Below, in pieces: positions 3,400 to 64,000 of a stretch of DNA of 64,000 nt. Each line of letters opens with the position of its first letter. The stretch's first letter is position 1. Origin of the DNA: Eledone cirrhosa (lineage: Eukaryota); contig OZ024741.1 of assembly GCA_964016885.1 (NCBI GenBank), positions 339,822,001 to 339,886,000 on the forward strand. The letters run 5' to 3'. A program made the translations under genes and the position numbers. The notes under the pieces were generated by a model. The model saw only the letters and a program-made list of their open reading frames with translations, had not been told where the DNA came from and did not search any database.

Positions 3400-3403
<4 letters not shown>

Positions 3404-3627: not shown

Positions 3628-4315
3628 GTGTGGTGTGTACATATATATACACACACTAATACAGACATACATGTATTTAAATAACAATATGTTCACACAT
3701 ACATATAATATAATAAATACATTTACACGTAACATGGAATATATTACGTTAGAAACAATTGAAGAAGGCCACGACATAAACGATACTTTTCGTATATGGG
3801 ATCGATTTAATCGACTTTCCCTTCCCCTTCAAATTTCTGGCCTTGTGCCTATATCATAAACCATTATTATTGTTTGAATTATGCTTCATTACTTTGAATT
3901 ATGCTTCTTTCCCATAACCTGCCGAGCTTCGTACTGATACCTCAAGCAAAATTTGGTAATACATACATTTAACAATCGTACGAATAATAGTATAAGGTTA
4001 TAAAGAAAACAGTAAATGACTTTTGTAAGCTGTTTAAATTAAAGATGCCCTTCTCTAGACATGGATCTTGCTAGTACAAATTATGTACGTACAAGTCATA
4101 TGTACGTACACAAACATATGTATATGTACAAACACGTACGTATTTATGTATATATAACATTGATATGCTTTATTTACAATGTATGTTAGCGCATGTATGT
4201 ATGTATGTATATATATATGTGTGTATATATATATAAATGAAAAGTGGCGAGCTGTGTTGTTGCAAATATGATATATATAATAAAATAAAGAATTAGAAAT
4301 AGAAGCCAGGGCTAT

Positions 4316-4383
4316 CCATCACCAGTGGTCTACTAGCCATCATAGGTATTTCTTCGCATTACAGACGATTTACCTCCGGCTAG
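4316..4383 (-). ncRNA. Degenerate copy of non-circularly permuted hammerhead ribozyme with k-turn
   Basis: Minus strand: CTAGCC G GA GGTAA A TCGTCTG TAATGCGAA GAA ATACC TAT GA T GGCTAG TAGACCA CTGGTGA T. Same architecture as 33232-33299 with compensatory changes, but the core is mutated (U16.1>A, A6>G). Confidence 0.6.
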
Positions 4384-4509
4384 ATCAATACAAGAGAGAC
4401 AGGTAAACAAACACGAATGGTGAGGCAACGTAAAGAGATGAAAAAAATGAGAAAATCAACACACATACATACACACACACACATATATATATATATTTAC
4501 ATATATATG

Positions 4510-4551
4510 TTCCTGATGACTTCATACGAATGAAACAGTTCTAGCTCTGTA
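4510..4551 (+). ncRNA. Truncated type I hammerhead ribozyme (same family as 18798)
   Basis: TTC CTGATGA CTTCATACGAAT GAA ACAG TTCTAGCT CTGT A. Similarity to the 18798 copy stops exactly at the GUA cleavage triplet. Confidence 0.6.
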
Positions 4552-4734: not shown

Positions 4735-4862
4735 ATTCTATCATAAGTTGAGCCATCTTATGCAGTTTGATATGCAAATGAAATTAAGCACCTCATGTAC
4801 ACAGACGAGAAAATCATATTTTTCGCCTGTTTTCAACTCCGGCAGTCGCAAGAGTGAGATGG

Positions 4863-4901
4863 ATCGTCCTGATGAGAACCAGTTCGAAATGCATCGACGA
4901 T
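4863..4901 (+). ncRNA. Minimal type I hammerhead ribozyme
   Basis: Stem I ATCGTC/GACGAT, core CTGATGA, stem II GAA-CCAG-TTC, GAA, palindromic stem III ATGCAT, cleavage triplet AUC (C4895). Confidence 0.8.
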
Positions 4902-6643: not shown

Positions 6644-9600
6644 TCAGAGTACTTCCCTCTCTACTCTGATTTTCCTTTTCAAATGAAATTTGAAAAAGTC
6701 AATCAGAGCATCACCGAAGAGGTAAGTGCTTGTCTTCAGCCCTTTCAAACGTGTCCACCATACTATCTCTTTCGCCATGGCCACCAGACAGATAAAAACT
6801 GCCTGCCCTTCCCGGCTAAAGGAGGAGGGCGGGGCAATCCTCACGATGGACTCAGATGATAGCTGGATCCGTCCTAAACGCGACAGCAGGTGTTCGACAT
6901 AAACCCACAAGTCAGCAATTTTCGGACACTGGACGAGTGCGTGCAGGACGGTTTCGTCGCCCTGCGCGCATCTCGGACATGCCCGGCTGACGGCACCTCC
7001 ATGCCTGTAGAGTTTATCCCGAACTGGCAAGGCTCCTCGGTAGCACTGCCAGGCCAGAGATTTCTGGAAGTTGTCCATAGGCCCCGGCCCGAAAGTTCTT
7101 CCGAAGAGATTGGCTAGTTGATTTTCGTCGACGCCTAGAGTTTCCCCAAGTACGTCGTCGCTCTTCCCCTCCACTAATCCTCTATAGAACGCCGAGGTGG
7201 AGTTTCCACCGATCACATTGCCCGATTGGTCGAGGGCTGTGAGCGCCTGAAGACATTCCAGTCTCCAGACGCTCCCTCTCGGTCTTCGCTTGACCCAGGA
7301 CTGCAGCTCCGTCAAGGAAACGAGCTGGGGAAATACGCGCCTAGCAAACGGCGACCACACCTGATCACCGTCGAGGAAGAGGTAGAGATGTCGAAGCCTG
7401 AGCGCGTGCCTGCGCATCATCAGCCACGGCATGCCCAGCCCTCCACGTAGCGGGTGTTGACAACAGATGGACCGCCTGACCATCGGAGCACGTCCCTTCC
7501 ACAAAAAGCGAAAGAGCAAACGCTCCAGCGCAGTCAGGCGAGGCTTAGGACAAGGTACGACGGTTAGGCGGTAGCAGATGACAGACGCGATGTACGCGTT
7601 AGCCACCTCCGCTCGACCTTTCAGGGATAGCTTCCTCTCCGCCCATTTCTGGGTGAGAGAAGCCACCCTGCTCGTCACCTCGTCCCAGTTTTTGTCCGTC
7701 TGGAGATCCGGACCGAACCAGACCCCTAGCAATTTAACCGGTCCGTCCGTCCAGCGCCCGACGACGCTGTTGGACGGCATGGACCTGCCTCTCCAGGTGC
7801 CGAGCTGCAGGCCCACTGACTTTTCCTGGTTGATCATTGCTCCTGTCACCGCTTCGTATTCTCTTAGTGTAGTGCCGATCGCCTCGATGTGTTTGGCGTT
7901 CGACACCACTACGGTGACATCGTCCGCATATGCTGACACGGATCTTCCGCATCCTAGTTCGCGCGGGATTCCCCTCAACGTCTCCAGTTTGTGCAGTAAT
8001 GGCTCGAGAGTCAATACGTACAAGAGGGAGGAGAGGGGACATCCTTGGCTGACCGAGCGCATGATGTTGAACAGTTCCGACAGGTGACCGTTCACTCTCA
8101 CCACAGAGCAGATGTCGCTGTGCATGGCAGCGATCCAGCCTCTGAAGACGGGCCCAAAGCCAGCCGCCCTCAGGACTGCCGCTAGGTAACGATGGTCGAC
8201 CCTATCGAAAGCTTTCGACTGATCTAAATTGATCAAGGACCCACCCGTGCCAGGTTCCTTAGCTACCCTCTCTATGATGTATCGCATGAGGTGGAGGTTG
8301 TCGTGGATGGATCTGTCGGGAATGGCGCATGTCTGCGCCTCTCCCACCAGACCACCAACGACAAGCGCCAACCTCTTTGCTAGCACCTTGGCCAAAATCT
8401 TGAACTCTGTGTTTAGCAGAGTTATGGGCCGGAAATTGTCTATGTTATCCCCCTTGTTCGGATCCTTTCTCAGCAGTGCCACCGCTCCTCGGCTCACAGA
8501 ACTGGGAATTCTCCCGTTCTGTTGCCAGTTGCAGTAGACGTCCGCCAAGAGGCCTCCGAACAAGTCTGGCATCTGTACGTAAAGTTCATAGGGCAGACCA
8601 TCCAAACCAGGCGATTTACCCCTTGTGCAGCCAGTCATTGCCTCCCTTACTTCAGCGGCTGTTATCGGCTTTTCGCAACACTTCGCCTCAGTGGCCGAGA
8701 GCCGCGGCAGTCCGTCGAGGTAGACACTAAAGTCCATCCGTCTACCCGGCCCACCGCTGCCCCCGAACAGCTGAGCGAAGTGTCGCTGAAAAGCTTCACA
8801 CATTTTCCCGGGATCGAGTAGCATGCGCCCGTCGTGGTCCACCAAAGACCGGATCGTGGCTTTGTTGCCACGACGCGCCTCCGCCACTCGGGCCCATTGA
8901 ACGGCTTTCGTCCCCTCGTGTCTGAGAGCACGCACCCTTGCTCTGACAACGCAGCCTTCGTGCTTTGCATTGAAGAATTGGTCAAGGGCCAATTTCGCCG
9001 CAAGCACGTCGGTCGCGATGCCTTTGCTAAGCGCCTCGTCTAATTTTCTAACTAGTTCTCCCTCTGCTCTATTTTTCTCTATTGCTAAAGCCTTACTAAA
9101 CCTAATCGATTCTATTCTAATCGCTCTTTTCAGAGCAAACCACCACTTGTTGTTGACGATGGCCCCCGTCAACGCCCGCTTAACTAGTTCGCTAATCCGG
9201 TCTCTGTAGGCCTTGCGCGCTGGTAAGGACGCGTTTAGCTTCAAGTAGCCGGGTCCTCGTCTATGAAGCCTATCTAAGTCAAGCACACAGATCACGAATT
9301 TGTGGTCCGTGTAGCTGACTATCTTGAATTGTGGACAGCCTATGCTAGACCTATCTATTTCCCTACAAAATACTCTATCTAGATATGATCTGGATGACCC
9401 TATGCGGTTTGTCCAAGTCCACATTGGCAAATTCGGGAAATCCAATCGGTACCTGTCAGACAGTTCAAAACGCCTGAGCAGGTTGGTGAGGCTCTTGCAC
9501 CCTCCACCCCTATCCGCTAATCCCACACAGTCCCAGCGTGCATCTAAGATCCCGTTCCAGTCGCCCACTAACACTAAAGAGCGGGACGTTCCAAGAAAGG

Positions 9601-9982
9601 TCTCCAGACGCCGGAAGAAATCAGGCCGCCCTGCTCCTGTCGGGGCATAGACGGCCACTAGCCTGAAAGCTTGCCCGTCTCCGCTGGCCACGTCCAGCAC
9701 CACCAGCTTACCCTCTGGGTCCAGGAAGATGGCCCGTATGACGAGATCTAAACCTCTCCGAAAAAGCACCGCAACTCCTCCACCCGATCCAGGACGGCTG
9801 GGAGATGCGTACACATCGTAGCCGCCGAAGATCGGTGCGAAGGCCCGTGCTTCGGAGATTCTGGTCTCGCTGATGGCCACTACATCTATGTTTAGTGACC
9901 TGAGGTCGTTGAGCAGGTGGCCCTGCTTCAATGACGTCCCCAAGCCACGCGCATTTATGCTGCCTATTCTGAGTGAGGTCAT
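6644..9982 (-). CDS. LINE ORF2: APE endonuclease, reverse transcriptase, C-terminal zinc knuckle (C-terminus slightly shortened by a deletion)
   Basis: 1112-aa ORF with NARGL, SET, GDWN, YLDR, TDH (APE); KSPGLDG, FRPITLLN, DQSKAFDRV, QGCPLS, YADD (RT); CPRC...HALVQC. Confidence 0.95.
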   Translation of the reverse strand: MTSLRIGSINARGLGTSLKQGHLLNDLRSLNIDVVAISETRISEARAFAPIFGGYDVYASPSRPGSGGGVAVLFRRGLDLVIRAIFLDPEGKLVVLDVASGDGQAFRLVAVYAPTGAGRPDFFRRLETFLGTSRSLVLVGDWNGILDARWDCVGLADRGGGCKSLTNLLRRFELSDRYRLDFPNLPMWTWTNRIGSSRSYLDRVFCREIDRSSIGCPQFKIVSYTDHKFVICVLDLDRLHRRGPGYLKLNASLPARKAYRDRISELVKRALTGAIVNNKWWFALKRAIRIESIRFSKALAIEKNRAEGELVRKLDEALSKGIATDVLAAKLALDQFFNAKHEGCVVRARVRALRHEGTKAVQWARVAEARRGNKATIRSLVDHDGRMLLDPGKMCEAFQRHFAQLFGGSGGPGRRMDFSVYLDGLPRLSATEAKCCEKPITAAEVREAMTGCTRGKSPGLDGLPYELYVQMPDLFGGLLADVYCNWQQNGRIPSSVSRGAVALLRKDPNKGDNIDNFRPITLLNTEFKILAKVLAKRLALVVGGLVGEAQTCAIPDRSIHDNLHLMRYIIERVAKEPGTGGSLINLDQSKAFDRVDHRYLAAVLRAAGFGPVFRGWIAAMHSDICSVVRVNGHLSELFNIMRSVSQGCPLSSLLYVLTLEPLLHKLETLRGIPRELGCGRSVSAYADDVTVVVSNAKHIEAIGTTLREYEAVTGAMINQEKSVGLQLGTWRGRSMPSNSVVGRWTDGPVKLLGVWFGPDLQTDKNWDEVTSRVASLTQKWAERKLSLKGRAEVANAYIASVICYRLTVVPCPKPRLTALERLLFRFLWKGRAPMVRRSICCQHPLRGGLGMPWLMMRRHALRLRHLYLFLDGDQVWSPFARRVFPQLVSLTELQSWVKRRPRGSVWRLECLQALTALDQSGNVIGGNSTSAFYRGLVEGKSDDVLGETLGVDENQLANLFGRTFGPGPMDNFQKSLAWQCYRGALPVRDKLYRHGGAVSRACPRCAQGDETVLHALVQCPKIADLWVYVEHLLSRLGRIQLSSESIVRIAPPSSFSREGQAVFICLVAMAKEIVWWTRLKGLKTSTYLFGDALIDFFKFHLKRKIRVEREVL

Positions 9983-10021
9983 GTTGAAAAGGAGTCGAAA
10001 AGATTGGAAAGACCACTTACC

Positions 10022-11854
10022 TTACTTCTCGTAGAGGAAGAACGGTTTTTCCATCCTTTTCACTGCTTGTGGCCGCCTCAGGAAGGATGTCCTTATAAAT
10101 CCTCCTGGAGAGTGCTTGTCAGAAGTCTCCAATGTCTTTGGGGAATTTTTGGTTTAGTGTCATGTACGTTTTCTGTGTGATGCGAGTGATTTGTATGTGT
10201 GGAGGTGGTGTGAATTTTGGGGTTGTTGTGTAGTCTTTTTCTGTGATGCTGGTGTTGTGTTGGATGTAGTGTAATAATTGGTTGTTGTTCAAATTTAATG
10301 CTGTGTAGTGTGTATCGTTTTGGTTGTTTTGTTTTGTTTGCGTTTGTTGTCGGTTTGTTTCTGTTTCGCATTTTGGTGACTTTTGTGGTGTAGTTGATGG
10401 TGGTGTTGGGGTTAATGATGGTGATAGTGTTGGTGTTTAGGGTGAGGGGTTGTTGATGCTGGTGTGGATGGTGGCATATCTGTCCTAACTTTTTTGTTTG
10501 TTAATTTATTTGTTTCCCTCTGTATTTTGTTTTTGGAGGGGGAAGGAAGAGAATTTTTTTTCTTTTTTGGTTTCTTTTTTTCTTTTTTCCTGATACCGTT
10601 TCCCACTCCTCGTCGTCACAATCTGTCTCCAGTTGTGATAGGCCGGGGAGTGGAAAATCCTCCACAGGCGTTAGTTTTGGTTGTGGCGTGGTGGATGGTG
10701 TAGGCGCTGGTGCTAGTTCTGAAGCGTTGGGTGGTGGTGGTGTTGGTGTTGGTGTTGGTTTTGCTACTGTTGCTGGGGTTGTTGCTGTTATAGTTGCTTC
10801 TGTTGTTGCTGCTACAGTTGTTGCTGCCATCTCTGCTACTGGTGGTGTTGATGGTTGTGTCACTGGGATGGGTAGGATAGGTGGCCTCAACCTTTTAGCC
10901 TGAGGGCAGAAAGCCCTTAGGTGGATTCCTTCACCACAAACGACACACCTAGGCCTTCTGCCCTCGACAATTATGGTGAGGTAGCTGCCGTCAGTGAGGT
11001 CTATTACCTCTGGGATCTCCTCAGTGCTTTTTTGGTCCGCTTGGATCAGGAGCTCCATCCCAGATCCGGACCAGTTCTCCTGCTTTTCTTTTGCTATTGC
11101 CATTATCTTTGTGTTGGCTTCGAAGCAGGCTAGGACGGCCGCTATTAGCCAGGGAATTTCGATGGCCGGTGGAACGTGGGTCACTCTGATCTTTACGAGT
11201 CTCTGGCCACAATAGCTTGGGACGAGTGTGAAGTCGTCACTTCTTAATGGGGCCACGGAGTGTTCTCTAGCCTCCTCTGGTGTTTCAAAGAACACGTCCA
11301 CGGTTCCATACTTCTGCCCACGTCTGATGTGGGTTTTTCTTGCCCACACATGTCCCAAAGCTTTTTGGATTTGGGACTCGGATGCCCGTTCCACTCGGCG
11401 CGATTTTACATTTATTGTTCGATACGACACGGTGCATAGGCGCCGATGCTCCATTTTATTAGGTGCGTGGGGGGGGGGGGATGACCCTGTACCCATCTTT
11501 CTTTACCATTTTTTTGGCATTTTCTAATTCCTCCTGAGTTACCGTAAATGCTTCGCACTGTTTTGCTACTCTGGCAAAACTCAGGATGGTTTTTTTAATG
11601 TCATTGTTGTTGTTGTTGCTATCGTTATTTTTGTTATTATTAATTTTAGTTTCAGTTGTGGTGGTGGTGACGTCAGTGGAGTTCGGTTTGGAAGAGTCCA
11701 TTTTGGTTGAAAATATTTCGACATCACGAGTTGATTTATTTTTTCCTTCTGTTTCTGTTGTCGCGGTGGTGGTTGTCGCGGTGATGGTGGTGGTGGCGGC
11801 TTTAACACCTGCAGTCATTGGTAATGGCGGGAAATGAATGTCTGCCTGAGACAA
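10022..11854 (-). CDS. LINE ORF1 (RNA-binding, CCHC zinc knuckle), broken by frameshifts in homopolymer runs
   Basis: ORF pieces 11459-11854 and 10501-11496 join across the G-run near 11469-11480. CVVCGEGIHLRAFC knuckle; Thr/Pro-rich C-terminal part probably ends ...KRMEKPFFLYEK* just upstream of ORF2. Confidence 0.75.
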
Positions 11855-18747: not shown

Positions 18748-18797
18748 GGCTTCTACAGGACTAGAGCTGTTTCATTCGGGAGAAATCATCAGGAAGC
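18748..18797 (-). ncRNA. Type I hammerhead ribozyme (opposite-strand arm)
   Basis: Reverse complement of 18799-18848 with one substitution. Confidence 0.72.
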
Positions 18798-18848
18798 GGC
18801 TTCCTGATGATTTCTCCCGAATGAAACAGTTCTAGTCCTGTAGAAGCC
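18798..18848 (+). ncRNA. Type I hammerhead ribozyme
   Basis: Stem I GGCTTC/GAAGCC, CTGATGA, stem II T-TTC-TCCC-GAA-T (U.U at its base), GAA, stem III ACAG/CTGT, cleavage GUA (A18842). Confidence 0.75.
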
Positions 18849-23905: not shown

Positions 23906-23945
<40 letters not shown>

Positions 23946-23955
23946 AACCAGTAAG

Positions 23956-24049
23956 ACCCCGACAGCTGAGCTCAAGCCGTTTCGACGGCTAATTCTGGAC
24001 TAAATGAACATTTATCCTGGTATTTAAATAGCCGATCTTCTCAAGGGGT
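23956..24049 (-). ncRNA. Type I hammerhead ribozyme, U3-A8 core variant (inverted pLTR)
   Basis: Reverse complement of 26873-26966. Confidence 0.8.
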
Positions 24050-25147
24050 AATTCCATATATGGTCAAAGTGATTGTCAAAAATCAGTAGTAATTCTGTGG
24101 TTGCAAATTAGTAGGGGAGATGGTGGCTAAACCTGCCAGTAGGAGAAAGAGGGGAGGGGGTGGAGTAGACCCAATCAAGCGTTGGTAGTGCCAGCTACAG
24201 CTGGGCATGAGGTCAAAGAAGATACAGGGGAGGGGGAGGGGGAGGAAGTCGGAACGGTAGGTAGAACAATGGGGGGTAAAAATAGGAAAGAAAAAATACT
24301 GAGAGTGAAGAAAAGCAAATAAGTGTAAAGAAAAAATTAAATTCTACGACCTAGGTGTCAGGCTATTGTTAGGCGAGAATAAAATAAAGAAAGAAAGAAA
24401 GAAGTAAATAAATAAATAAATAAATAAATAAGGAAATAAGTAAAAGAACTAGGTGGGACGAATTAGGCAAGGACCCTTTTAAGAGGTATAAGTACGTAAA
24501 TGATACGGTGACTGGTCAACAAAAGGGGCCAAAATACTAAAGAGACTACCACGAAATAAACAATAAAGGTTTCCATCCCGGGCCAGCAACGACCCAGTGC
24601 AGCAAAGTGAACTTGTACGACATAATAATTCTGAGTCCCGGGAAAAATATATACTAATGCTAACTCTAAAAGATCTAAAACAAGCTACATGAAAGTTCGT
24701 ACGAAATAAAGGTAGAATATGGAGAAATAAGTTCAGAATCCACCCCGCCCAGAAGAAAAGCGAAGCAAGAAATACTGAAACGAAAAAATAAGGCATAAGT
24801 GCCACTAAGAAATATAGAGGGCACAGAGAATAGTGGGAGCGGTCGGAAAAGGGGGGAAAGTATCCGGGGTCTAAGCCAACTGCTATAAAGGGCGGAGTCC
24901 GCCAAATCTATCAAAGACTAGGGGAGGGGGGAGTGGGGGTACTAAGGCTACATGGGGCCAAAGGGCAGCCTCGGGTGGGCGAGAAAAGACGCCGACAAAG
25001 GAGAAGAGCTGGGGTAGAAGGACAAAGGAGAGAGGGGGGAAGGAAATAAAGGATGCGATAAAAGAATACAAAGAAGATCTTACGTCTTCCTTGGCAAGCA
25101 GGGGTTACCCATTGCAAAATCGGCAACTGGGGTGTTATAGCCCTAGT

Positions 25148-25968
25148 CTACCCCCCCGGGTCATTATGGGGTTTGAGGGCGAGGTAAGTCCTACGCAATC
25201 TATGTTTACATGCAGTAACCAGTTCATCTTTCTTGTTTAGGAGTTGGTCCGTCGAAAACAGCATTTGTAAAGTTTCCTCCGAGCATAAATTGCACGGACG
25301 GCGTCCTCCCGTGTAAGAATTGGCTCTGGACAGTAATCTCCAAGTGAGATCATAGGTGATGTTGTTGTCCTTGAGGTCCCATATGTGGCCCGAAAGTGTA
25401 GTGGCGTGACGCCGGGCCGGGTTTCGGAAGGTATGTCTATGTTGGTATAGCCGGGTCTTGAAGTCACATGCGGTAAGTCCTATATAGGCTTTGTTGGAGG
25501 TATCCGTCCTCACGTTGCACTGGTAGATCACATTACGGTCTCTGCATCTATTGTCGAGTGGGCAAATAGATCTATCCGGGCAGTTACACCTCCTGGTCGG
25601 TTCTCCACTGCTATTTAGGTTATTTCTGCCATCGGGGTTGAGTTTTTTGTTGTTAGAGGAGACGATGTTTTGTGCGAAGTTTGGTGTAGTGCTGTAAGAG
25701 AGTTTGATGGTATTTTTGTTAATTATGTTGTGGTAGCGGTGTTGTAATGGGAAGTGTTTTTCAATGAGCCTAAAGAATAGTTTCCCGATGGGAGTAGTCA
25801 CCTCTGCGTTGTGGGGAGGATTGAACCATGTTACATTGCGTGAGCGGCGGTGTCTCCTGCTGGTTCCGCTAATGGGATCTGGACAGTAGGATATTTCCTC
25901 CCGGAAACCACTCCGCTTGAGGGCCTGGTTGTAATAAGGCGCATGTTCATCGAATATCCGCTCATTAG
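25148..25968 (-). pseudogene. Inverted duplicate of the 3' part of the PLE ORF (GIY-YIG domain)
   Basis: Protein sequence identical to the C-terminal part of the 27152 ORF. Confidence 0.9.
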
Positions 25969-26872
25969 TACCCCCATTAGTACCCCCACTCCCCCCTCCC
26001 CTAGTCTTTGATAGATTTGGCGGACTCCGCCCTTTATAGCAGTTGGCTTAGACCCCGGATACTTGCCCCCCTTTTCCGACCGCTCCCACTATTCTCTGTG
26101 CCCTCTATATTTCTTAGTGGCACTTATGCCTTATTTTTTCGTTTCAGTATTTCTTGCTTCGCTTTTCTTCTGGGCGGGGTGGATTCTGAACTTATTTCTC
26201 CGTATTCTACCTTTATTTCGTACGAACTTTCATGTAGCTTGTTTTAGATCTTTTAGAGTTAGCATTAGTATATATTTTTCCCGGGACTCAGAATTATTAT
26301 GTCGTACAAGTTCACTTTGCTGCACTGGGTCGTTGCTGGCCCGGGATGGAAACCTTTATTGTTTATTTCGTGGTAGTCTCTTTAGTATTTTGGCCCCTTT
26401 TGTTGACCAGTCACCGTATCATTTACGTACTTATACCTCTTAAAAGGGTCCTTGCCTAATTCGTCCCACCTAGTTCTTTTACTTATTTCCTTATTTATTT
26501 ATTTATTTATTTATTTACTTCTTTCTTTCTTTCTTTATTTTATTCTCGCCTAACAATAGCCTGACACCTAGGTCGTAGAATTTAATTTTTTCTTTACACT
26601 TATTTGCTTTTCTTCACTCTCAGTATTTTTTCTTTCCTATTTTTACCCCCCATTGTTCTACCTACCGTTCCGACTTCCTCCCCCTCCCCCTCCCCTGTAT
26701 CTTCTTTGACCTCATGCCCAGCTGTAGCTGGCACTACCAACGCTTGATTGGGTCTACTCCACCCCCTCCCCTCTTTCTCCTACTGGCAGGTTTAGCCACC
26801 ATCTCCCCTACTAATTTGCAACCACAGAATTACTACTGATTTTTGACAATCACTTTGACCATATATGGAATT

Positions 26873-26966
26873 ACCCCTTGAGAAGATCGGCTATTTAAAT
26901 ACCAGGATAAATGTTCATTTAGTCCAGAATTAGCCGTCGAAACGGCTTGAGCTCAGCTGTCGGGGT
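26873..26966 (+). ncRNA. Type I hammerhead ribozyme, U3-A8 core variant (5' pLTR)
   Basis: Stem I ACCCC/GGGGT, core TTGAGAA, stem II GA(T)CGGCTA/TAGCCGTC with a large insert, GAA, stem III ACGGCT/AGCTGT around palindromic TGAGCTCA, cleavage GUC (C26961). Confidence 0.82.
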
Positions 26967-27151
26967 CTTACTGGTTCCTATTACCCACTCTACTACCTCA
27001 AGTATTGAGTACTTTGGTGCGTTATGGTCCACCTGGTTCCTTACCACATTTCCTTCGTTATCTAGCTCCTACTCCCGTAGTAGAGCACTTTCCGACCCTA
27101 CCACGCCGTATCCAGACTTTTCCGCTAAGCTCAATTCATTTCACCCGCACC

Positions 27152-29305
27152 ATGCGAAAACACAACATTGACTTCTCTACCAAGAACATCCCAATCCCAC
27201 CGAAAAAACTTTACCTTCGGATGCTCACGCAAAAAATTGATCTATTTGCGAAAAGACTTAGATGGAGAACTTTTTTCTATGACAGATATTGCGACAACCA
27301 AGACTTCGGCACCAAGGAGAGATTCGGATTTATTACCTACAAATCTCCGCCCCTGAACCCCTTGCTCGCACCCTTCGAGAATGACCTCTTCCAACTGGTC
27401 AAGAACATTAAATTTAAACCCAGACACAACCGATTCCTACAAAAACTCCGTAGCAACTTAACAGAGTATGATAACACAAATGACATCATGGTGCATTCGG
27501 ATAAAACTGGGAACCTATACTTTGTCAACCCTGACAGATACCACACACTGATCAGGAGCAGCCTAAACTCCACCTATAAAAAGGCCAACCACTCTTGCAT
27601 CGAGGACATAAATCGAGATGGACAACAAATCACCTCCAGCCTCGGGGTCGCCGACCGCACGGAACCTCTAGACCCACGGACACCATACTTCACACTGAAG
27701 GACCATAAATCCGATTTTGACCGTAAACCCTCCATCAGGCTTATTAACCCAACGAAGTCCGACATAGGGAGAATCAGCAAAAAAATCCTAGACCGCGTGA
27801 TACCAAAAGTCAAGCAACACACCCGACTTAGCCTATGGATCAACACCCAGGAAGTAATCTCCTGGTTCAGCAATATGGAGGATAAACGAGAAACTAAATT
27901 CATACAGTTCGACATAGAGAGCTACTATGCTTCAATCACCTTACCGCTACTTACTGCCGCTTTGGACTTCGCCGAAACACTCGTGCCCATCACCGACCAG
28001 GAAAGAAAAATCATCCTCCACGCCAGGAAGACAGTCTTACTCTTTGACGACTCTAAATGGATAAAAAGAGCTCCCGACTCACCCTTCGACGTCAGCATGG
28101 GCGCCACGGATTCGGCGGAGGTCACTGATCTTATAGGATTATTCCTAATAGCCAAACTCACTGATATGTTTCCTGCATTCGGTGGTGGATTGTACCGTGA
28201 TGATGGGCTCCTTACCCTTAAAGGGTACAACCCCAGTAGTACAGATCGGGTCCGGAAACAATTAATCAGATTCTTCCGCGACTGGGGATTTAAAATAACC
28301 CTACAAACGTCCCTGACCCGAGTAAACTTCCTGGACGTAACCCTCGACCTCGAAAACGACCTGTACTACCCATACAGGAAACCTAATGACAATCTGCACT
28401 ACATCCACCGCCGATCAAACCATCCTAGGAACATCACAAACAACCTGGTCAAAAACATCTCCCTCCGCACATCCCGTTTGTCAGCTAATGAGCGGATATT
28501 CGATGAACATGCGCCTTATTACAACCAGGCCCTCAAGCGGAGTGGTTTCCGGGAGGAAATATCCTACTGTCCAGATCCCATTAGCGGAACCAGCAGGAGA
28601 CACCGCCGCTCACGCAATGTAACATGGTTCAATCCTCCCCACAACGCAGAGGTGACTACTCCCATCGGGAAACTATTCTTTAGGCTCATTGAAAAACACT
28701 TCCCATTACAACACCGCTACCACAACATAATTAACAAAAATACCATCAAACTCTCTTACAGCACTACACCAAACTTCGCACAAAACATCGTCTCCTCTAA
28801 CAACAAAAAACTCAACCCCGATGGCAGAAATAACCTAAATAGCAGTGGAGAACCGACCAGGAGGTGTAACTGCCCGGATAGATCTATTTGCCCACTCGAC
28901 AATAGATGCAGAGACCGTAATGTGATCTACCAGTGCAACGTGAGGACGGATACCTCCAACAAAGCCTATATAGGACTTACCGCATGTGACTTCAAGACCC
29001 GGCTATACCAACATAGACATACCTTCCGAAACCCGGCCCGGCGTCACGCCACTACACTTTCGGGCCACATATGGGACCTCAAGGACAACAACATCACCTA
29101 TGATCTCACTTGGAGATTACTGTCCAGAGCCAATTCTTACACGGGAGGACGCCGTCCGTGCAATTTATGCTCGGAGGAAACTTTACAAATGCTGTTTTCG
29201 ACGGACCAACTCCTAAACAAGAAAGATGAACTGGTTACTGCATGTAAACATAGATTGCGTAGGACTTACCTCGCCCTCAAACCCCATAATGACCCGGGGG
29301 GGTAG
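27152..29305 (+). CDS. PLE polyprotein: reverse transcriptase + Cys-rich linker + GIY-YIG endonuclease (717 aa from first ATG)
   Basis: FIQFDIESYY, SMGATDSAEV, GLYRDDGL, NFLDVTL (PLE RT); CNC..CPLDNRC; VIYQC..YIGLT..FKTRLYQH; CNLCSEE. The reading frame is open from 27005 (TTG). Confidence 0.93.
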   Translation: MRKHNIDFSTKNIPIPPKKLYLRMLTQKIDLFAKRLRWRTFFYDRYCDNQDFGTKERFGFITYKSPPLNPLLAPFENDLFQLVKNIKFKPRHNRFLQKLRSNLTEYDNTNDIMVHSDKTGNLYFVNPDRYHTLIRSSLNSTYKKANHSCIEDINRDGQQITSSLGVADRTEPLDPRTPYFTLKDHKSDFDRKPSIRLINPTKSDIGRISKKILDRVIPKVKQHTRLSLWINTQEVISWFSNMEDKRETKFIQFDIESYYASITLPLLTAALDFAETLVPITDQERKIILHARKTVLLFDDSKWIKRAPDSPFDVSMGATDSAEVTDLIGLFLIAKLTDMFPAFGGGLYRDDGLLTLKGYNPSSTDRVRKQLIRFFRDWGFKITLQTSLTRVNFLDVTLDLENDLYYPYRKPNDNLHYIHRRSNHPRNITNNLVKNISLRTSRLSANERIFDEHAPYYNQALKRSGFREEISYCPDPISGTSRRHRRSRNVTWFNPPHNAEVTTPIGKLFFRLIEKHFPLQHRYHNIINKNTIKLSYSTTPNFAQNIVSSNNKKLNPDGRNNLNSSGEPTRRCNCPDRSICPLDNRCRDRNVIYQCNVRTDTSNKAYIGLTACDFKTRLYQHRHTFRNPARRHATTLSGHIWDLKDNNITYDLTWRLLSRANSYTGGRRPCNLCSEETLQMLFSTDQLLNKKDELVTACKHRLRRTYLALKPHNDPGG

Positions 29306-30395
29306 ACTAGGGCTATAACACCCCAGTTGCCGATTTTGCAATGGGTAACCCCTGCTTGCCAAGGAAGACGTAAGATCTTCTTTGTATTCTTTTATCGCAT
29401 CCTTTATTTCCTTCCCCCCTCTCTCCTTTGTCCTTCTACCCCAGCTCTTCTCCTTTGTCGGCGTCTTTTCTCGCCCACCCGAGGCTGCCCTTTGGCCCCA
29501 TGTAGCCTTAGTACCCCCACTCCCCCCTCCCCTAGTCTTTGATAGATTTGGCGGACTCCGCCCTTTATAGCAGTTGGCTTAGACCCCGGATACTTTCCCC
29601 CCTTTTCCGACCGCTCCCACTATTCTCTGTGCCCTCTATATTTCTTAGTGGCACTTATGCCTTATTTTTTCGTTTCAGTATTTCTTGCTTCGCTTTTCTT
29701 CTGGGCGGGGTGGATTCTGAACTTATTTCTCCGTATTCTACCTTTATTTCGTACGAACTTTCATGTAGCTTGTTTTAGATCTTTTAGAGTTAGCATTAGT
29801 ATATATTTTTCCCGGGACTCAGAATTATTATGTCGTACAAGTTCACTTTGCTGCACTGGGTCGTTGCTGGCCCGGGATGGAAACCTTTATTGTTTATTTC
29901 GTGGTAGTCTCTTTAGTATTTTGGCCCCTTTTGTTGACCAGTCACCGTATCATTTTAAAAGGGTCCTTGCCTAATTCGTCCCACCTAGTTCTTTTACTTA
30001 TTTCCTTATTTCCTTATTTATTTATTTATTTATTTATTTACTTCTTTCTTTCTTTCTTTATTTTATTCTCGCCTAACAATAGCCTGACACCTAGGTCGTA
30101 GAATTTAATTTTTTCTTTACACTTATTTGCTTTTCTTCACTCTCAGTATTTTTTCTTTCCTATTTTTACCCCCCATTGTTCTACCTACCGTTCCGACTTC
30201 CTCCCCCTCCCCCTCCCCTGTATCTTCTTTGACCTCATGCCCAGCTGTAGCTGGCACTACCAACGCTTGATTGGGTCTACTCCACCCCCTCCCCTCTTTC
30301 TCCTACTGGCAGGTTTAGCCACCATCTCCCCTACTAATTTGCAACCACAGAATTACTACTGATTTTTGACAATCACTTTGACCATATATGGAATT

Positions 30396-30489
30396 ACCCC
30401 TTGAGAAGATCGGCTATTTAAATACCAGGATAAATGTTCATTTAGTCCAGAATTAGCCGTCGAAACGGCTTGAGCTCAGCTGTCGGGGT
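30396..30489 (+). ncRNA. Type I hammerhead ribozyme, U3-A8 core variant (3' pLTR)
   Basis: Identical to 26873-26966; cleavage after C30484. Confidence 0.82.
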
Positions 30490-30580
30490 CTTACTGGTTC
30501 CTATTACCCACTCTACTACCTCAAGTATTGAGTACTTTGGTGCGTTATGGTCCACCTGGTTCCTTACCACATTTCCTTCG

Positions 30581-31104: not shown

Positions 31105-31144
<40 letters not shown>

Positions 31145-31150
31145 ATTAGT

Positions 31151-31218
31151 CCTTCATCAGTGATCTTCCAACCTTCATTGGTATTTCATCGCTTTAAAAA
31201 TCATATACCTCTGGTTGG
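31151..31218 (-). ncRNA. Non-circularly permuted hammerhead ribozyme with k-turn
   Basis: CCAACC A GA GGTAT A TGATTTT TAAAGCGAT GAA ATACC AAT GA A GGTTGG AAGATCA CTGATGA A. Confidence 0.72.
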
Positions 31219-31744
31219 TGCGAGCAATAACTAAATAAAGTTATTGGGACAAGTAAAGTAGGGTGAAGCGAGAGAGACATGTAAACAAGATGAAGGACTA
31301 ATTTTATTCATATGTAACCCATGTGCAACCACGCAGCACTCCATTTTTCTTATATTTATTCTTATCCTCAGCTGCGACCTGTCTGTTTCTTTCTTACTGC
31401 TTCTCTTCTCTCTGTATGTGTCACCTTCTTTTTACCCCCCTCTGCCAGTCATACTCTCTCTCAGCTGGCCTCTTCCCCACACTTCCACTCACTCACTCTC
31501 TGCTTCTCCCTCTCTCTCACTTCCTCCCGTTTGACTTGTGTGAAATCCTTTTCTCGGTCACATCTCACCCAGGTCGGATGGTCTGTATTTCTCGTCCATG
31601 ATTTCACCAATCTTAAGCTTATAGATATCATTTACTTGTCTATTCCTATCTTTCCGTTGCAATACCATCTTTGTTTGTTTACATGTCTCGCTCGCTTCAC
31701 CCTAATTTACTTGTCTCAATAACTTTATTTAGTTATTGCTCGCA

Positions 31745-31812
31745 CCAACCAGAGGTATATGATTTTTAAAGCGATGAAATACCAATGAAGGTTGAAAGAT
31801 CACTGATGAAGG
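31745..31812 (+). ncRNA. Non-circularly permuted hammerhead ribozyme with k-turn
   Basis: Same as 31151-31218 with one substitution; predicted cleavage after A31759 (AUA). Confidence 0.7.
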
Positions 31813-31925
31813 ACTAATTTTATTCATATTCATATATATAGCAGCACTCCATTTTGCTTATATATATATAGTGTATATATATAAGTGTAAGTCAACAGGG
31901 TAAAATTAGCGTCGTGTATTCACAT

Positions 31926-33141: not shown

Positions 33142-33183
<42 letters not shown>

Positions 33184-33231
33184 AATAATAGGCTGCCCGT
33201 TGCAAATGGTGGGGCATGTGAAAAAGTAGGT

Positions 33232-33299
33232 CCTTCATCAGTGACCCTCCAACCGTCGCAGGCATTTCATCGCTTTAAGGGCCATATGCCTCAGGTTGG
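33232..33299 (-). ncRNA. Non-circularly permuted hammerhead ribozyme with k-turn (best copy)
   Basis: CCAACC T GA GGCAT A TGGCCCT TAAAGCGAT GAA ATGCC TGC GA C GGTTGG AGGGTCA CTGATGA A. Stem III GGCAT/ATGCC, stem I TGGCCCT/AGGGTCA, intact core. Confidence 0.75.
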
Positions 33300-33420
33300 T
33301 GCGAACAACGGCTAAAAAAAGTCGTTGGGACACGTAAACAAAGGGGACGCCAGGATAACAAACAAAAAAGTTTAAGCAACGGAAAGTGAGAGGAAATAGA
33401 CAAGTCCCAGATCTCTATGA

Positions 33421-33467
<47 letters not shown>

Positions 33468-33489
33468 TGTATATATATACGTATATATA

Positions 33490-33677
33490 TAACGGAGGAG
33501 TTGTGGTAAGGAACCAGATCGACCATAACGCACCAGAGTACTCAATACTTAGGGTAGTAGAGTGGGTAAAGGAGAAAGTATGACCCCGACGGCAGAGCTC
33601 AAGCCGTTTCGACGGCTATTTCTGGACTGAAATAACTGTCGAAACGGCTTGAGCATGCCGTCGGGGTCATACTTTCT

Positions 33678-33681
<4 letters not shown>
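33490..33681 (-). mobile_element. Miniature palindromic PLE footprint in (TA)n
   Basis: Tail (reverse) plus palindromic HHR 3' halves ending TTTCTCCTA. Confidence 0.85.
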
Positions 33682-35615: not shown

Positions 35616-36042
35616 GCACACATATATATATGTACGTATCAGTTTAGCGAACGTTTATTACAACGCTCGCTTTGTCCATTTGTAAACAAACGGACAGCCT
35701 GTTTATGCCGTACGGTGTTAAGGCAACCACGTCACCTTTTTGTTCAACACTGACACAGGAACGGTGTACTAGTTTCAAGCTTGTTAGCTATTGTCAGCAC
35801 CGTATACCCTTCTGCCAGATGGTTGAACGTTCGAAAGTATATACTTTCCTTATGAAAATTAACGGTGAGCAGCCTAATTTGCATATCGAGTGAGTTCATC
35901 GGCCAGGCGCACCGAAAACGATAAATTGAATAGAATGAAACGAAATTTCATTTCTCACTCTTAGTACGGCACTTACTTAAATGTAAGTATGTATGTATAC
36001 GTACATGTATACGTACATACGTATATGTATACAGACGTACAG
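35472..36042. repeat. Unclassified element bounded by ~55-bp direct repeats, related to 51920-52212
   Basis: CTTAAATGTAAG..TGTATGTATACGTAC..CAGACGTACAG at 35471 and 35976; GAAATTTCATTTCTCACTCTTAGTACGGC shared with 51941. Confidence 0.5.
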
Positions 36043-37225
36043 GCGGGCTGCCTTGGTGAGGAGATCCATCTGCTGTCAACACCCTTCGAAAGGAGGGCTG
36101 GGGATGCCGTGGCTAATGATGCGTAAACACGCATTAAGGCTACGGCACCTCTACGTATTCCTCACCGGTCAACCGGTGTGGGCCTCGTTTGTGAGACGAA
36201 CCTTTCCCAGACTCGTCTCACTCACCGAGCTGCAATCCTGGGTCAAGCAAAGACCGAGAAAACTGGGCGCCTGGCACACTGAGTGTGCCCAGGCGCTCAC
36301 CGCCCTCTGGCAGGCGGATCCGGTTATCAGTGGAGTCTCCACCGCAACATTCTATAGAGGGCTGATACGCAGCAGGTGCGACGACGCCCTCGGAGAAGCC
36401 CTAGACATGGAGGAGGACGAACTGGCCAGCCTGTTCGGTAGGACATTCAGCCCGGGACCTATGGACAACTTCCAGAAGTCCCTGGCCTGGCAGTGCTACC
36501 GAGGGGCTCTACCCGTTCGAGAAAAGCTCTACAGACACGGGCGCCCGGGTAGGGACCCCGCCAAAAAGATCTGTCCCAGATGCGTGTGCGACGAGGAAAC
36601 CGTTGCACACGCATTGGTACATTGCTCGGGCGTAGCCGATCTGTGGGGCTATGTCGAACAACTGCTGTCAAGGGTGGGACCGATCCGGTTGACCACCGAG
36701 TCCATTGTAATGATTAAGCCGCCTCCCCCCTTCAAAGATGAAGGAGAGGCGGTGTTTCTGTGCGTAATAGCCATGGTGAAAGAAGTTGTATGGTGGACGC
36801 GTCTGAAAGGACTGAGGTCAAGCACCTTTCTCTCTGGCCAACAACTGGTCCGTTTCTTCCGATATCATTTCGGAAGAAGGATCAGGATGGAGAGAGAGGT
36901 GCTCCACCTTAGTCGTTTTTATGAAAGGTGGGTGAAAGTGGCGAGAATGGCCCGTGTGAATGGGCCTTCTCTTTACATAAGCCTGTAGGTGGAAAAGAGG
37001 AAGGAACGAGGGAGCAACCCCTCTCTGTGCTCCCGAGGAGAAGGGTTGCACACTTTTTTCGCCTCCTCTCTATTGAGGATTTTGTTATAATTTTATTTTT
37101 TGTTATATTTGATTTTATTTTTATATATTGTTATTGCCTCCTCCCCATTGAGGACGCCTTGTTTTGTAAACTCCCCCCATTGTACTTGTCCCACTTTTAA
37201 TGACCTGGTGGCAAATAAAAGAAAC
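36043..37225 (+). mobile_element. 5'-truncated Tx1-clade LINE (diverged subfamily); ORF2 C-terminus 36043-36988
   Basis: VRRSICCQHPSKGGLGMPWLMMR...CPRC..HALVHC, closely similar to the 6644 ORF2; 3' UTR ends GTGGCAAATAAAAGAAAC. Confidence 0.9.
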
Positions 37226-62359: not shown

Positions 62360-64000
62360 GTTTTCTTTATTAACCACAAGGGTTTACATAAAGTAGACAT
62401 TAAGGACAGTACAGGACAACACAGGACGGTACAAATGGGCATTTCTGCGTGTAAAAAAACAGAGGATGTAATAAAATAACAAAGAAAAATTCCCCAATAG
62501 GGGGGAGACTTCCGAGGGACATTTGTGGAGAAAGCCCATTAAAAGACCACAGTGACCCTGACCACCAGGGCAAGTGCCCTCTCCCAGTTTTCCACCTTTT
62601 ACAGACACATACTCAGAGTAGGCCCATTCACTCGGGCCATACTTGCTTCTCTCACCCATCTTACAACTAAATGCTGGGAAGAGAGCATTTCCCTCTCTAC
62701 CCTGATTTTCCTTTTAAAATGAAATTTGAAAAAGTTAATCAAGGCATCATCGAAGAGGTGAGTGCTCGTCTTCAGCCCTTTCAAACGTGTCCACCATACT
62801 ATCTCTTTCGCCATGGCCACCAGACAGATAAAAACTGCCTGCCCTTCCCGGCTAAAGGAGGAGGGCGGGGCAATCCTCACGATGGACTCAGCTGATAGCT
62901 GGATCTGTCCTACACGTGACAGCAGGTGTTCGACATAAACCCACAAGTCAGCAATGCTCGGACACTGGACGAGTGCGTGCAGGACGGTTTCGTCACCCTG
63001 CGCGTATCTCGGACATGCCCGGCTGACGGCACCTCCATGCCTGTAGAGTTTATCCCGAACTGGCAAAGCTCCTCGGTAACACTGCCAGGCCAGGGATTTC
63101 TGGAAGTTGTCCATAGGCTCCGGCCCGAAAGTCCTTCCGAAGAGATTGGCTAGTTGATTTTCGTCGACGCCTAGAGTTTCTCCAAGTACGTCGTCGCACA
63201 TCCCCTCCACTAATCCTCTATAGAACGCCAAGGTAGAGTCTCCACCGATCACATTGCCCGATTGGTCGAGGGCTGTGAGCGCCTGAAGACATTCCAGTCT
63301 CCAAGCGCTCCCTCTCGGTCTTCGCTTGACCCAGGACTGCAGCTCCGTCAAGGGGACGAGCTGGGGAAAGACGTGTCTAGCAAACGGCGACCACACCTGA
63401 TCACCGTCGAGGAAGAAGTGGAGATGTCGTAGCCTGAGCGCGTGTCTGCCCATCATCAGCCACGGCATTCCCAGCCCTCCACGTAGCGGGTGTTGACAGC
63501 AGATGGACCACCTGACCATCGGAGCGCGTCCTTTCCACAAAAAGCGAAAGAGCAAACGCTCCAGCGCAGTTAGGCGGGGCTTAGGACAAGGTACAACGGT
63601 CAGGCGGTAGTAGATGACGGACGCAATGTACGCGTTGGCCACATCCGCTCGACCTTTCAGGGATAGCTTCCTCTCCGCCCATTTCTGGGTGAGAGAAGCC
63701 ACCCTGCTCGTCACCTCGTCCCAGTTTTTGTCCGTCTGGAGGTCCGGACCGAACTAGACCCCTAGCAATTTAACCGGTCCGTCCGTCCAGCGCCCGACGA
63801 CGCTGTTGGTCGGCATGGACCTGCCTCTCCAGGTGCCGAGCTGCAGGCCCACTGACTTTTCCTGGTTGATCATTGCTCCTGTCACCGCTTCGTATTCTCT
63901 TAGTGTAGTGCCGATCGCCTCGATGTGTTTGGCGTTCGACACCACTACGGTGACATCGTCCGCATATGCTGACACGGATCTTCCGCATCCTAGTTCGCGC
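62360..64000 (-). mobile_element. Second copy of the Tx1-clade LINE (3' part; continues past the window), ORF2 inactivated
   Basis: Very similar to 6369-7964; 3' end abuts (AAT)n; TGG>TAG stop at 63754-63756; CPRC>CPRY. Confidence 0.93.

Follow-up and report, generated by a model that had tools for sequence, protein, structure and literature searches.

Hammerhead ribozymes with the strand order S-G-C (type SGC) cleave in vitro at 0.007–0.19 per minute (Eckert 2023, PMC10085705). That paper describes them only from assembled metatranscriptomes, i.e. from the RNA of soil, spruce and sludge, and the term type-SGC occurs in a single open-access paper. In ordinary hammerheads, as the same source sets out, a loop–loop contact ties stem I to stem II. 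Penelope-like elements, which can carry hammerheads, are described as inserting at (TA)n targets, in partial tandems and with inverted 5' copies, and as having a tail of 30–40 nt that is optional (PMC8557442), and the tail is reported to reflect two internal starts of reverse transcription (PMC11167929). Here, a stretch of 64,000 nt from Eledone cirrhosa (contig OZ024741.1, positions 339,822,001–339,886,000) was analysed; this whole stretch is called the window, and positions are counted from its first base. A first-pass annotation had proposed a non-circular hammerhead, held by a kink-turn (k-turn), on its minus strand, and had pointed out that some such permutations are in print. The S-G-C order has indeed been published, with a periphery that differs from the one found here.

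The motif is probably an S-G-C hammerhead core in about 25,000 copies of non-coding, retrozyme-like tandem retroelements, which Penelope-like enzymes likely copy and which are predicted to cut their own RNA. Judged from the sequences, it is a real, covarying, high-copy RNA structure that resembles the type-SGC hammerhead, and its carrier is likely a retrozyme.

Core, helices and covariation

The minus strand at 33230–33331 reads as a complete hammerhead core in the order S-G-C (all core features are on this strand; extents are given in ascending coordinates and most single strands from 5' to 3'). The core elements named in the first-pass annotation were all found in their places. The motif is not of type I, II or III, as had been stated: the circular order C-G-S does not apply to it. 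Following hammerhead numbering, block S (33285–33290) comprises the 5' strand of stem III, GGCAU (33290–33286), and A17 (33285), with the predicted cut site between 33285 and 33284. The 5' strand of stem I, UGGCCCU (33284–33278; positions 1.1–1.7, by pair counts), comes next, followed by a stretch (33269–33277) that the alignment divides into a UAAA linker, a GCGA strand and U11.1 (33269). Block G (33261–33268, by pair counts) holds GAAA (33268–33265) and the 3' strand of stem III, AUGCC (33265–33261). In the aligned stretch 33249–33260, a 3-nt bulge (33260–33258) is followed by GA-C (33257–33255; GA is 1b and 2b, and 3b is C) and by the 3' strand of the outer helix, GGUUGG (33254–33249), which enters stem I without a linker. 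Block C (33230–33248, from sequence and alignment) consists of the 3' strand of stem I, AGGGUCA (33248–33242), CUGAUGA (33241–33235), A10.1 (33234) and GGAC (33233–33230), the 3' strand of a helix named P1.

Upstream of block S, the n strand of the k-turn, U-GA (33293–33291), was read from the sequence as 3n U, 2n G and 1n A, and it varies by family. The 5' strand of the outer helix (the non-canonical, NC, helix of the k-turn), CCAACC (33299–33294), and the 5' strand of helix P3, UCGC (33301–33304), which is the partner of the GCGA adjoining 11.1, were both placed by pair counts. An optional hairpin, P2 (33306–33327), was seen in the alignment. The 5' strand of P1, GUCC (33328–33331), is the partner of the 3' GGAC, with moderate support from sequence and pair counts. 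This pairing had been suggested before, and a P1 of 4–7 bp was formable in all 12 representatives.

A generic SGC descriptor matched three sites in the window (33241, 31160 and 31803), compared with none in 200 dinucleotide shuffles. Rfam returned no hammerhead among the 150 of 414 window matches listed (these being driven by microsatellites), and none in a focused scan. The published SGC descriptor, in its terms for the core and for stem II, fits none of 164 collected copies (G10.1-C11.1 plus at least two stem II pairs, and a I–II helix with the 3' tail). Standard searches miss the motif, as had been expected. The core contains CUGANGA, GAAA, the U16.1-A15.1 pair and H17; the search patterns used for selection included GAAA and CTG(A) from it and left U16.1 and H17 free. 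Across families, the catalytic positions (CUGA-N-GA, GAAA, U16.1 and H17) are retained, with variation at N7 and in the stems. The predicted cleavage site is AUA, AUC, GUA or GUU, which is always N-U-H in family-majority copies.

Covariation was assessed in an alignment of 31 copies, hand-picked from about 200 to span nine sequence families (F1–F9), with related rows. For the whole structure, 85.4% of cells were paired, compared with 66.6% in shuffled (0/500) and 32–50% in slid alignments, and the covariation score was 0.59 against 0.25 shuffled (0/500). Stem I was paired in 92.3% of cells, with both sides changed in seven of seven pairs, stem III in 94.2% (four of five pairs), the outer helix in 95.2% (five of six) and P3 (33304–33301 with 33273–33270) in 92.6% (two of four). 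The compensatory changes reported earlier for stem I, stem III and the outer helix were thereby confirmed, and RNAalifold on its own recovered the outer helix and stem III from the alignment. P1 (73% paired) and P2 (70%) scored lower because of register shifts and, for P2, its absence in F9.

The pair counts show stem II as reduced to 10.1/11.1, with strand 11.2–11.5 pairing with the upstream strand of P3. Strand 10.2–10.5 likely pairs with a second upstream strand, that of P1, and the optional P2 lies between P1 and P3. Next to A9/G12, the one loose pair at 10.1-11.1 is followed by a probable junction with P3 and P1. Stem I, P3 and the outer helix would come together at their far ends in a three-way junction, and we infer that P3 acts as the functional stem II arm. 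The 10.1-11.1 pair, described before as covarying, is loose: 21 of the 31 copies have a standard pair there, one young family has A.A and another family A.C. Overall, the earlier description holds for the core and the listed helices. It missed P3, the junction replacing stem II and the retrozyme-like carrier.

Genomic copies, families and the kink-turn

The genome comprises 3.0 Gb and is rich in microsatellites. The pattern GAAA-N7-GA-N14-CUGANGA had 25,677 matches in it, compared with 347 for a reversed control. DNA searches with five variants gave 1,095–2,121 first-look candidates apiece, and pattern searches brought up further families. Nine families were compared. An arbitrary sample of 390 kb contained one copy, compared with about three expected from the genome-wide pattern count. 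F4 is recent, with 40 of 40 scored hits 100% identical, while another family is ~80% diverged, and the lineage is therefore old, yet was active recently. In the distant family F9, the sequences of stem I, stem III, the outer helix and P3 are different ones, but it retains the k-turn and the core. A tight pattern had no matches in metagenome contigs and none in viral contigs. A looser metagenome pattern matched at least 119 stretches, and among the 80 returned, five passed loose stem tests; the matches were judged to be due to chance because none had the outer helix.

Simple repeats are abundant in the window and around the motif, which could favour a chance resemblance or an assembly artefact. 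The shuffle test, the covariation and the genome-wide pattern count all speak against this, and independent sequencing contigs (from runs of unrecorded kind) span the motif. Given the copy number and the covariation, such an explanation is practically excluded.

A consensus k-turn, i.e. a 3-nt bulge with tandem G.A/A.G between two helices, was found in F1–F4, F7 and F9. F8 is mixed, F5 has a variant and F6 has none. The U at 2n in F5 gives A.U at 2b.2n, as in the Kt-23 variant described in PMC2790904. F6 differs from standard k-turns in that Watson–Crick pairs replace both G.A pairs, leaving a plain 3-nt bulge. In this natural exchange of k-turn for bulge (loci L161–L177), GA of the 5' strand became UC and GA of the 3' strand was kept. 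The 3'-strand GA (1b, 2b) was invariant in all 31 aligned copies, most of which had been chosen with patterns containing GA. The consensus k-turn of the first-pass annotation applies to most families, but not to F6 or, strictly, to F5. Because of these two families, the k-turn is not indispensable. The bend at this point looks conserved and a true k-turn does not seem to be required, which weakens an obligatory role of L7Ae.

The 3b.3n rule, as described in PMC4382518, governs the folding of k-turns in metal ions without protein, and F1 (3b = C) as well as F3 and F4 (3n = G) fit ion-only folding. No natural hammerhead with a k-turn was announced in the titles and abstract openings of the matching open-access papers listed (30 of 37). 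A possible but doubtful reading is that of a permuted hammerhead, independently evolved in an animal retroelement lineage and forming a closed cage from a k-turn arm, a junction in place of stem II and a three-way junction above. In it, the k-turn would let a host protein of the 15.5K/L7Ae family gate cleavage, and the scrambled topology would clamp the two ends of the cut monomer for circularisation. If true, this would be a natural protein-switched small ribozyme in ~25,000 genomic copies.

In the preferred reading, that of a self-cutting S-G-C hammerhead in tandem retroelements, the bend at the foot of stem III would return the chain up to the three-way junction where stem I and the outer helix meet P3. 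The junction on top would thus stand in for the usual contact between loop I and loop II. The fold in cis must bridge the stem III foot and the stem I tip with ~9 pairs and no linker. Were this fold strained, the motif could be real and cut only as a dimer, with adjacent tandem copies swapping their C blocks (effective order C-S-G). The copies do lie in tandem, and metazoan retrozyme hammerheads with weak stems are described as cutting better as dimers (PMC7229834). The distance from GAAA to CUGANGA is, however, constant across all families, which fits a geometric constraint in cis, and any swap would still yield a non-circular order. Cutting solely as a dimer is considered improbable.

Carrier element, insertion signature and neighbouring elements

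Non-coding monomers of 460–750 nt, with a GC content of 43–45%, carry the motif close to their 3' end, and motifs on the same strand are spaced 458–749 nt apart. The longest open reading frame (ORF) starting with ATG had 36–113 aa in five monomers. Each monomer has one hammerhead motif, and the monomers form short tandem arrays of two to five units. Copies of F1 have a common 3' end running into (TA)n and ragged 5' ends. Two classes of 3' ends ~40 nt apart were found in F2 (11 and 12 of 28) and F4 (6 and 6 of 14). The arrays also have 5' inversions, and copies on both strands occurred in 21 of 139 motif-bearing loci, some of which overlap. Fixed 3' ends, an optional tail, 5' truncation or inversion and a (TA)n target correspond to insertion of the Penelope type, and Penelope-like coding elements are common in the genome.

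The motif in the window belongs to a 5'-truncated solo copy of F1 (33180–33425, minus strand; 97–98% identity to the F1 monomer of locus L014), which lies between microsatellites and whose 3' end runs into (TA)n. The full F1 monomer has ~660 nt. The additional copies reported for the window are present. By sequence and descriptor, F2 is represented by an inverted 5' piece with an intact motif (31131–31288, minus strand) and by slightly more than one monomer (31289–31868, plus strand; motif at ~31720–31815). The copy at 4316 had been taken for a diverged version of the full motif. It proved, from its sequence, to be a decayed copy of F3 (4229–4459, minus strand), which has suffered an internal deletion and mutations in the core: the site reads AAA, CUGAUGA has become CUGGUGA, and the upstream hairpin is lost. 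Within F3, CUGAUGA was found in 17 of 18 collected copies and the AUA site in 15 of 18.

In the proposed mechanism, each monomer of a tandem transcript would receive one cut. Its two ends would still be held together by ~19 bp (P1, P3, the outer helix and stem III), making it easier to ligate them into a circle. At a nicked (TA)n target, a Penelope-like reverse transcriptase (RT) would begin 65–110 nt downstream of the cut site and copy through the ribozyme, for which it would need a circular or uncut multimer template. Such a start and such copying would lead to 3' ends that are fixed, to 5' ends that are ragged or inverted, and to arrays that are short. In F6, one of 34 loci starts exactly at the cut site and the remainder follow TA microhomology. 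In F1, F2 and F4, the 5'-truncation test was confounded by TA microhomology (among the 100 of 1,283 overlapping matches listed). The lack of a 5'-end peak fits circular or uncut multimer templates and is no evidence of cleavage.

The monomer might also be the pseudo-long terminal repeat (pLTR) part of an unseen autonomous Penelope-like family, with the arrays as truncated by-products. The insertion signature is the same as that of Penelope-like elements, an origin from pLTRs has been proposed for animal retrozymes (10.64898/2026.07.22.740005) and some Naiad elements are described with unplaced half cores (PMC8557442). This origin appears unlikely, as the arrays examined in F1 (30 loci) were all monomer-only and the sole copy next to a Penelope RT (locus L181) is a chance neighbour. 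No autonomous partner with a common terminal sequence was found against two Penelope-like families. The L181 element was rejected as a partner: 0 of 19 other copies of its RT family had an upstream sense motif, and two inspected copies have a minimal type I hammerhead upstream instead.

Several points weigh against a self-cutting, Penelope-copied retrozyme. As reported in PMC11167929, insertion in vitro did not depend on cleavage by the hammerhead, and the type-SGC ribozymes tested in PMC10085705 have a normal stem II, which this motif does not. Two of five shuffle measures, both of the count type, were not exceeded (30/500 and 366/500), and the aligned sequences are related and hand-picked. 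The comparison of cognate with swapped P1 strands did not discriminate, the cognate coming out on top in 3 of 12. Ten of the 31 aligned copies lack a pair at 10.1-11.1, including the youngest family with A.A, and when the window copy is folded as a single sequence, a competing fold that is no hammerhead is preferred (z −1.88). No sequence common to the monomer and the window's autonomous Penelope-like element was found. Pyrimidines make up 68% of the monomer, which as a circle is only 43% paired, and there was no 5'-truncation peak at the cut site.

Some of these points would suit a structure with the shape of a hammerhead and with weak or no catalysis, which is retained because a Penelope-like protein recognises it. 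The 10.1-11.1 mismatches in young families and the missing excess of 5' ends at the cut site agree with this, as does the position of the ribozyme region, which adjoins the RT start sites, together with the dispensable cleavage in vitro (PMC11167929). Moreover, only one of nine Xenopus retrozyme dimers is reported to cut (10.64898/2026.07.22.740005). The conserved catalytic positions among varying stems and the constant N-U-H site speak against a dead structure, though this partly reflects the search patterns, in which GAAA and CTG(A) were set but U16.1 and H17 were not. We consider this explanation unlikely as well, and a ribozyme that cuts its own RNA remains the preferred reading.

The Penelope-like element of the window (23941–30580) has an intact ORF (27152–29305, plus strand), with partial tandem and inverted pieces 100% identical. 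By eye and tblastn, the ORF comprises an RT plus a GIY-YIG-like region at its C-terminus, and it had no Pfam hit. Its pLTR carries an ordinary type I hammerhead (26872–26968 and ~30392–30487, both plus strand) with a compensatory U3/A8 exchange (UUGAGAA for CUGAUGA), a long loop II and a GUC site, and this hammerhead is missed by Rfam. Short 3' fragments of related pLTRs lie in (TA)n at 33520–33680, often with a small inverted head. Similar fragments occur near 3400, 16800, 22400, 55000 and 56500, and one lies just upstream of the SGC motif. In a second Penelope-like family (L197, L200, L202, L203), the region upstream of the RT ORF holds a minimal type I hammerhead whose stem III is AT-rich and looks palindromic. 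CUGAUGA motifs were also seen in other small repeated elements with inverted heads (4490–4530, 4860–4900 and 18780–18830), which may be additional hammerhead families. The window further contains a near-intact long interspersed nuclear element (LINE) with endonuclease, RT and zinc-binding domains, an upstream ORF1-like frame and truncated relatives (LINE and relatives: 6644–10021, 10501–11502 and 62599–63753, minus strand; 35987–36988, plus strand).

Relation to known ribozymes and retroelements

Non-circular RNA permutations were previously found only in environmental RNA of unknown agents. If active, the motif would be a genome-encoded and very abundant case from an animal, and surveys of ribozymes and retrozymes that are based on type I would miss whole classes of elements. 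The natural swaps among the nine families (k-turn or bulge, hairpin present or absent, several 10.1-11.1 pairs, young and old copies) provide a ready test set for the folding of scrambled ribozymes and for the role of ribozymes in Penelope-mobilised elements.

The animal non-LTR retrozymes described in PMC7229834 and 10.64898/2026.07.22.740005 are similar in their non-coding tandem monomers with one hammerhead each, their GC content below 50%, their thousands of copies and the coexisting Penelope-like elements. They are defined and searched by type I hammerheads in these sources, whereas the element described here is SGC. Its monomers of 460–750 nt are pyrimidine-rich and dispersed as short arrays. 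The retrozyme circles in PMC7229834 are highly self-paired, in contrast to the low pairing of this monomer. With the Penelope pLTR hammerheads (PMC8557442, PMC11167929), the element has in common the (TA)n targets, partial tandems, 5' inversions and the optional tail of 30–40 nt. It differs from their description in having neither an ORF nor a type I ribozyme.

The likeness to the type-SGC ribozymes of PMC10085705 (HRIMA-1 and the SGC variants) lies in the block order, the core and the shortness of the linker that leads from stem I towards stem II. The published ribozymes have a normal stem II, whereas this motif has one loose pair and a junction with two upstream strands. In their fourth helix, the 3' tail pairs with the strand that follows stem III, whereas in this motif that strand has its partner upstream. 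Further differences are the genomic location in many copies, the extension of stem III through the k-turn and the three-way junction on top. The words "kink" and "k-turn" do not occur in PMC10085705 and its supplement text, and searches of the open-access literature brought up no animal genome for which an SGC hammerhead is reported. The element is a full member of neither published family, because its stem II and periphery differ from those of Eckert's SGC ribozymes and its ribozyme type differs from that of the retrozymes. If the motif is active, the different scaffold points to a convergent origin.
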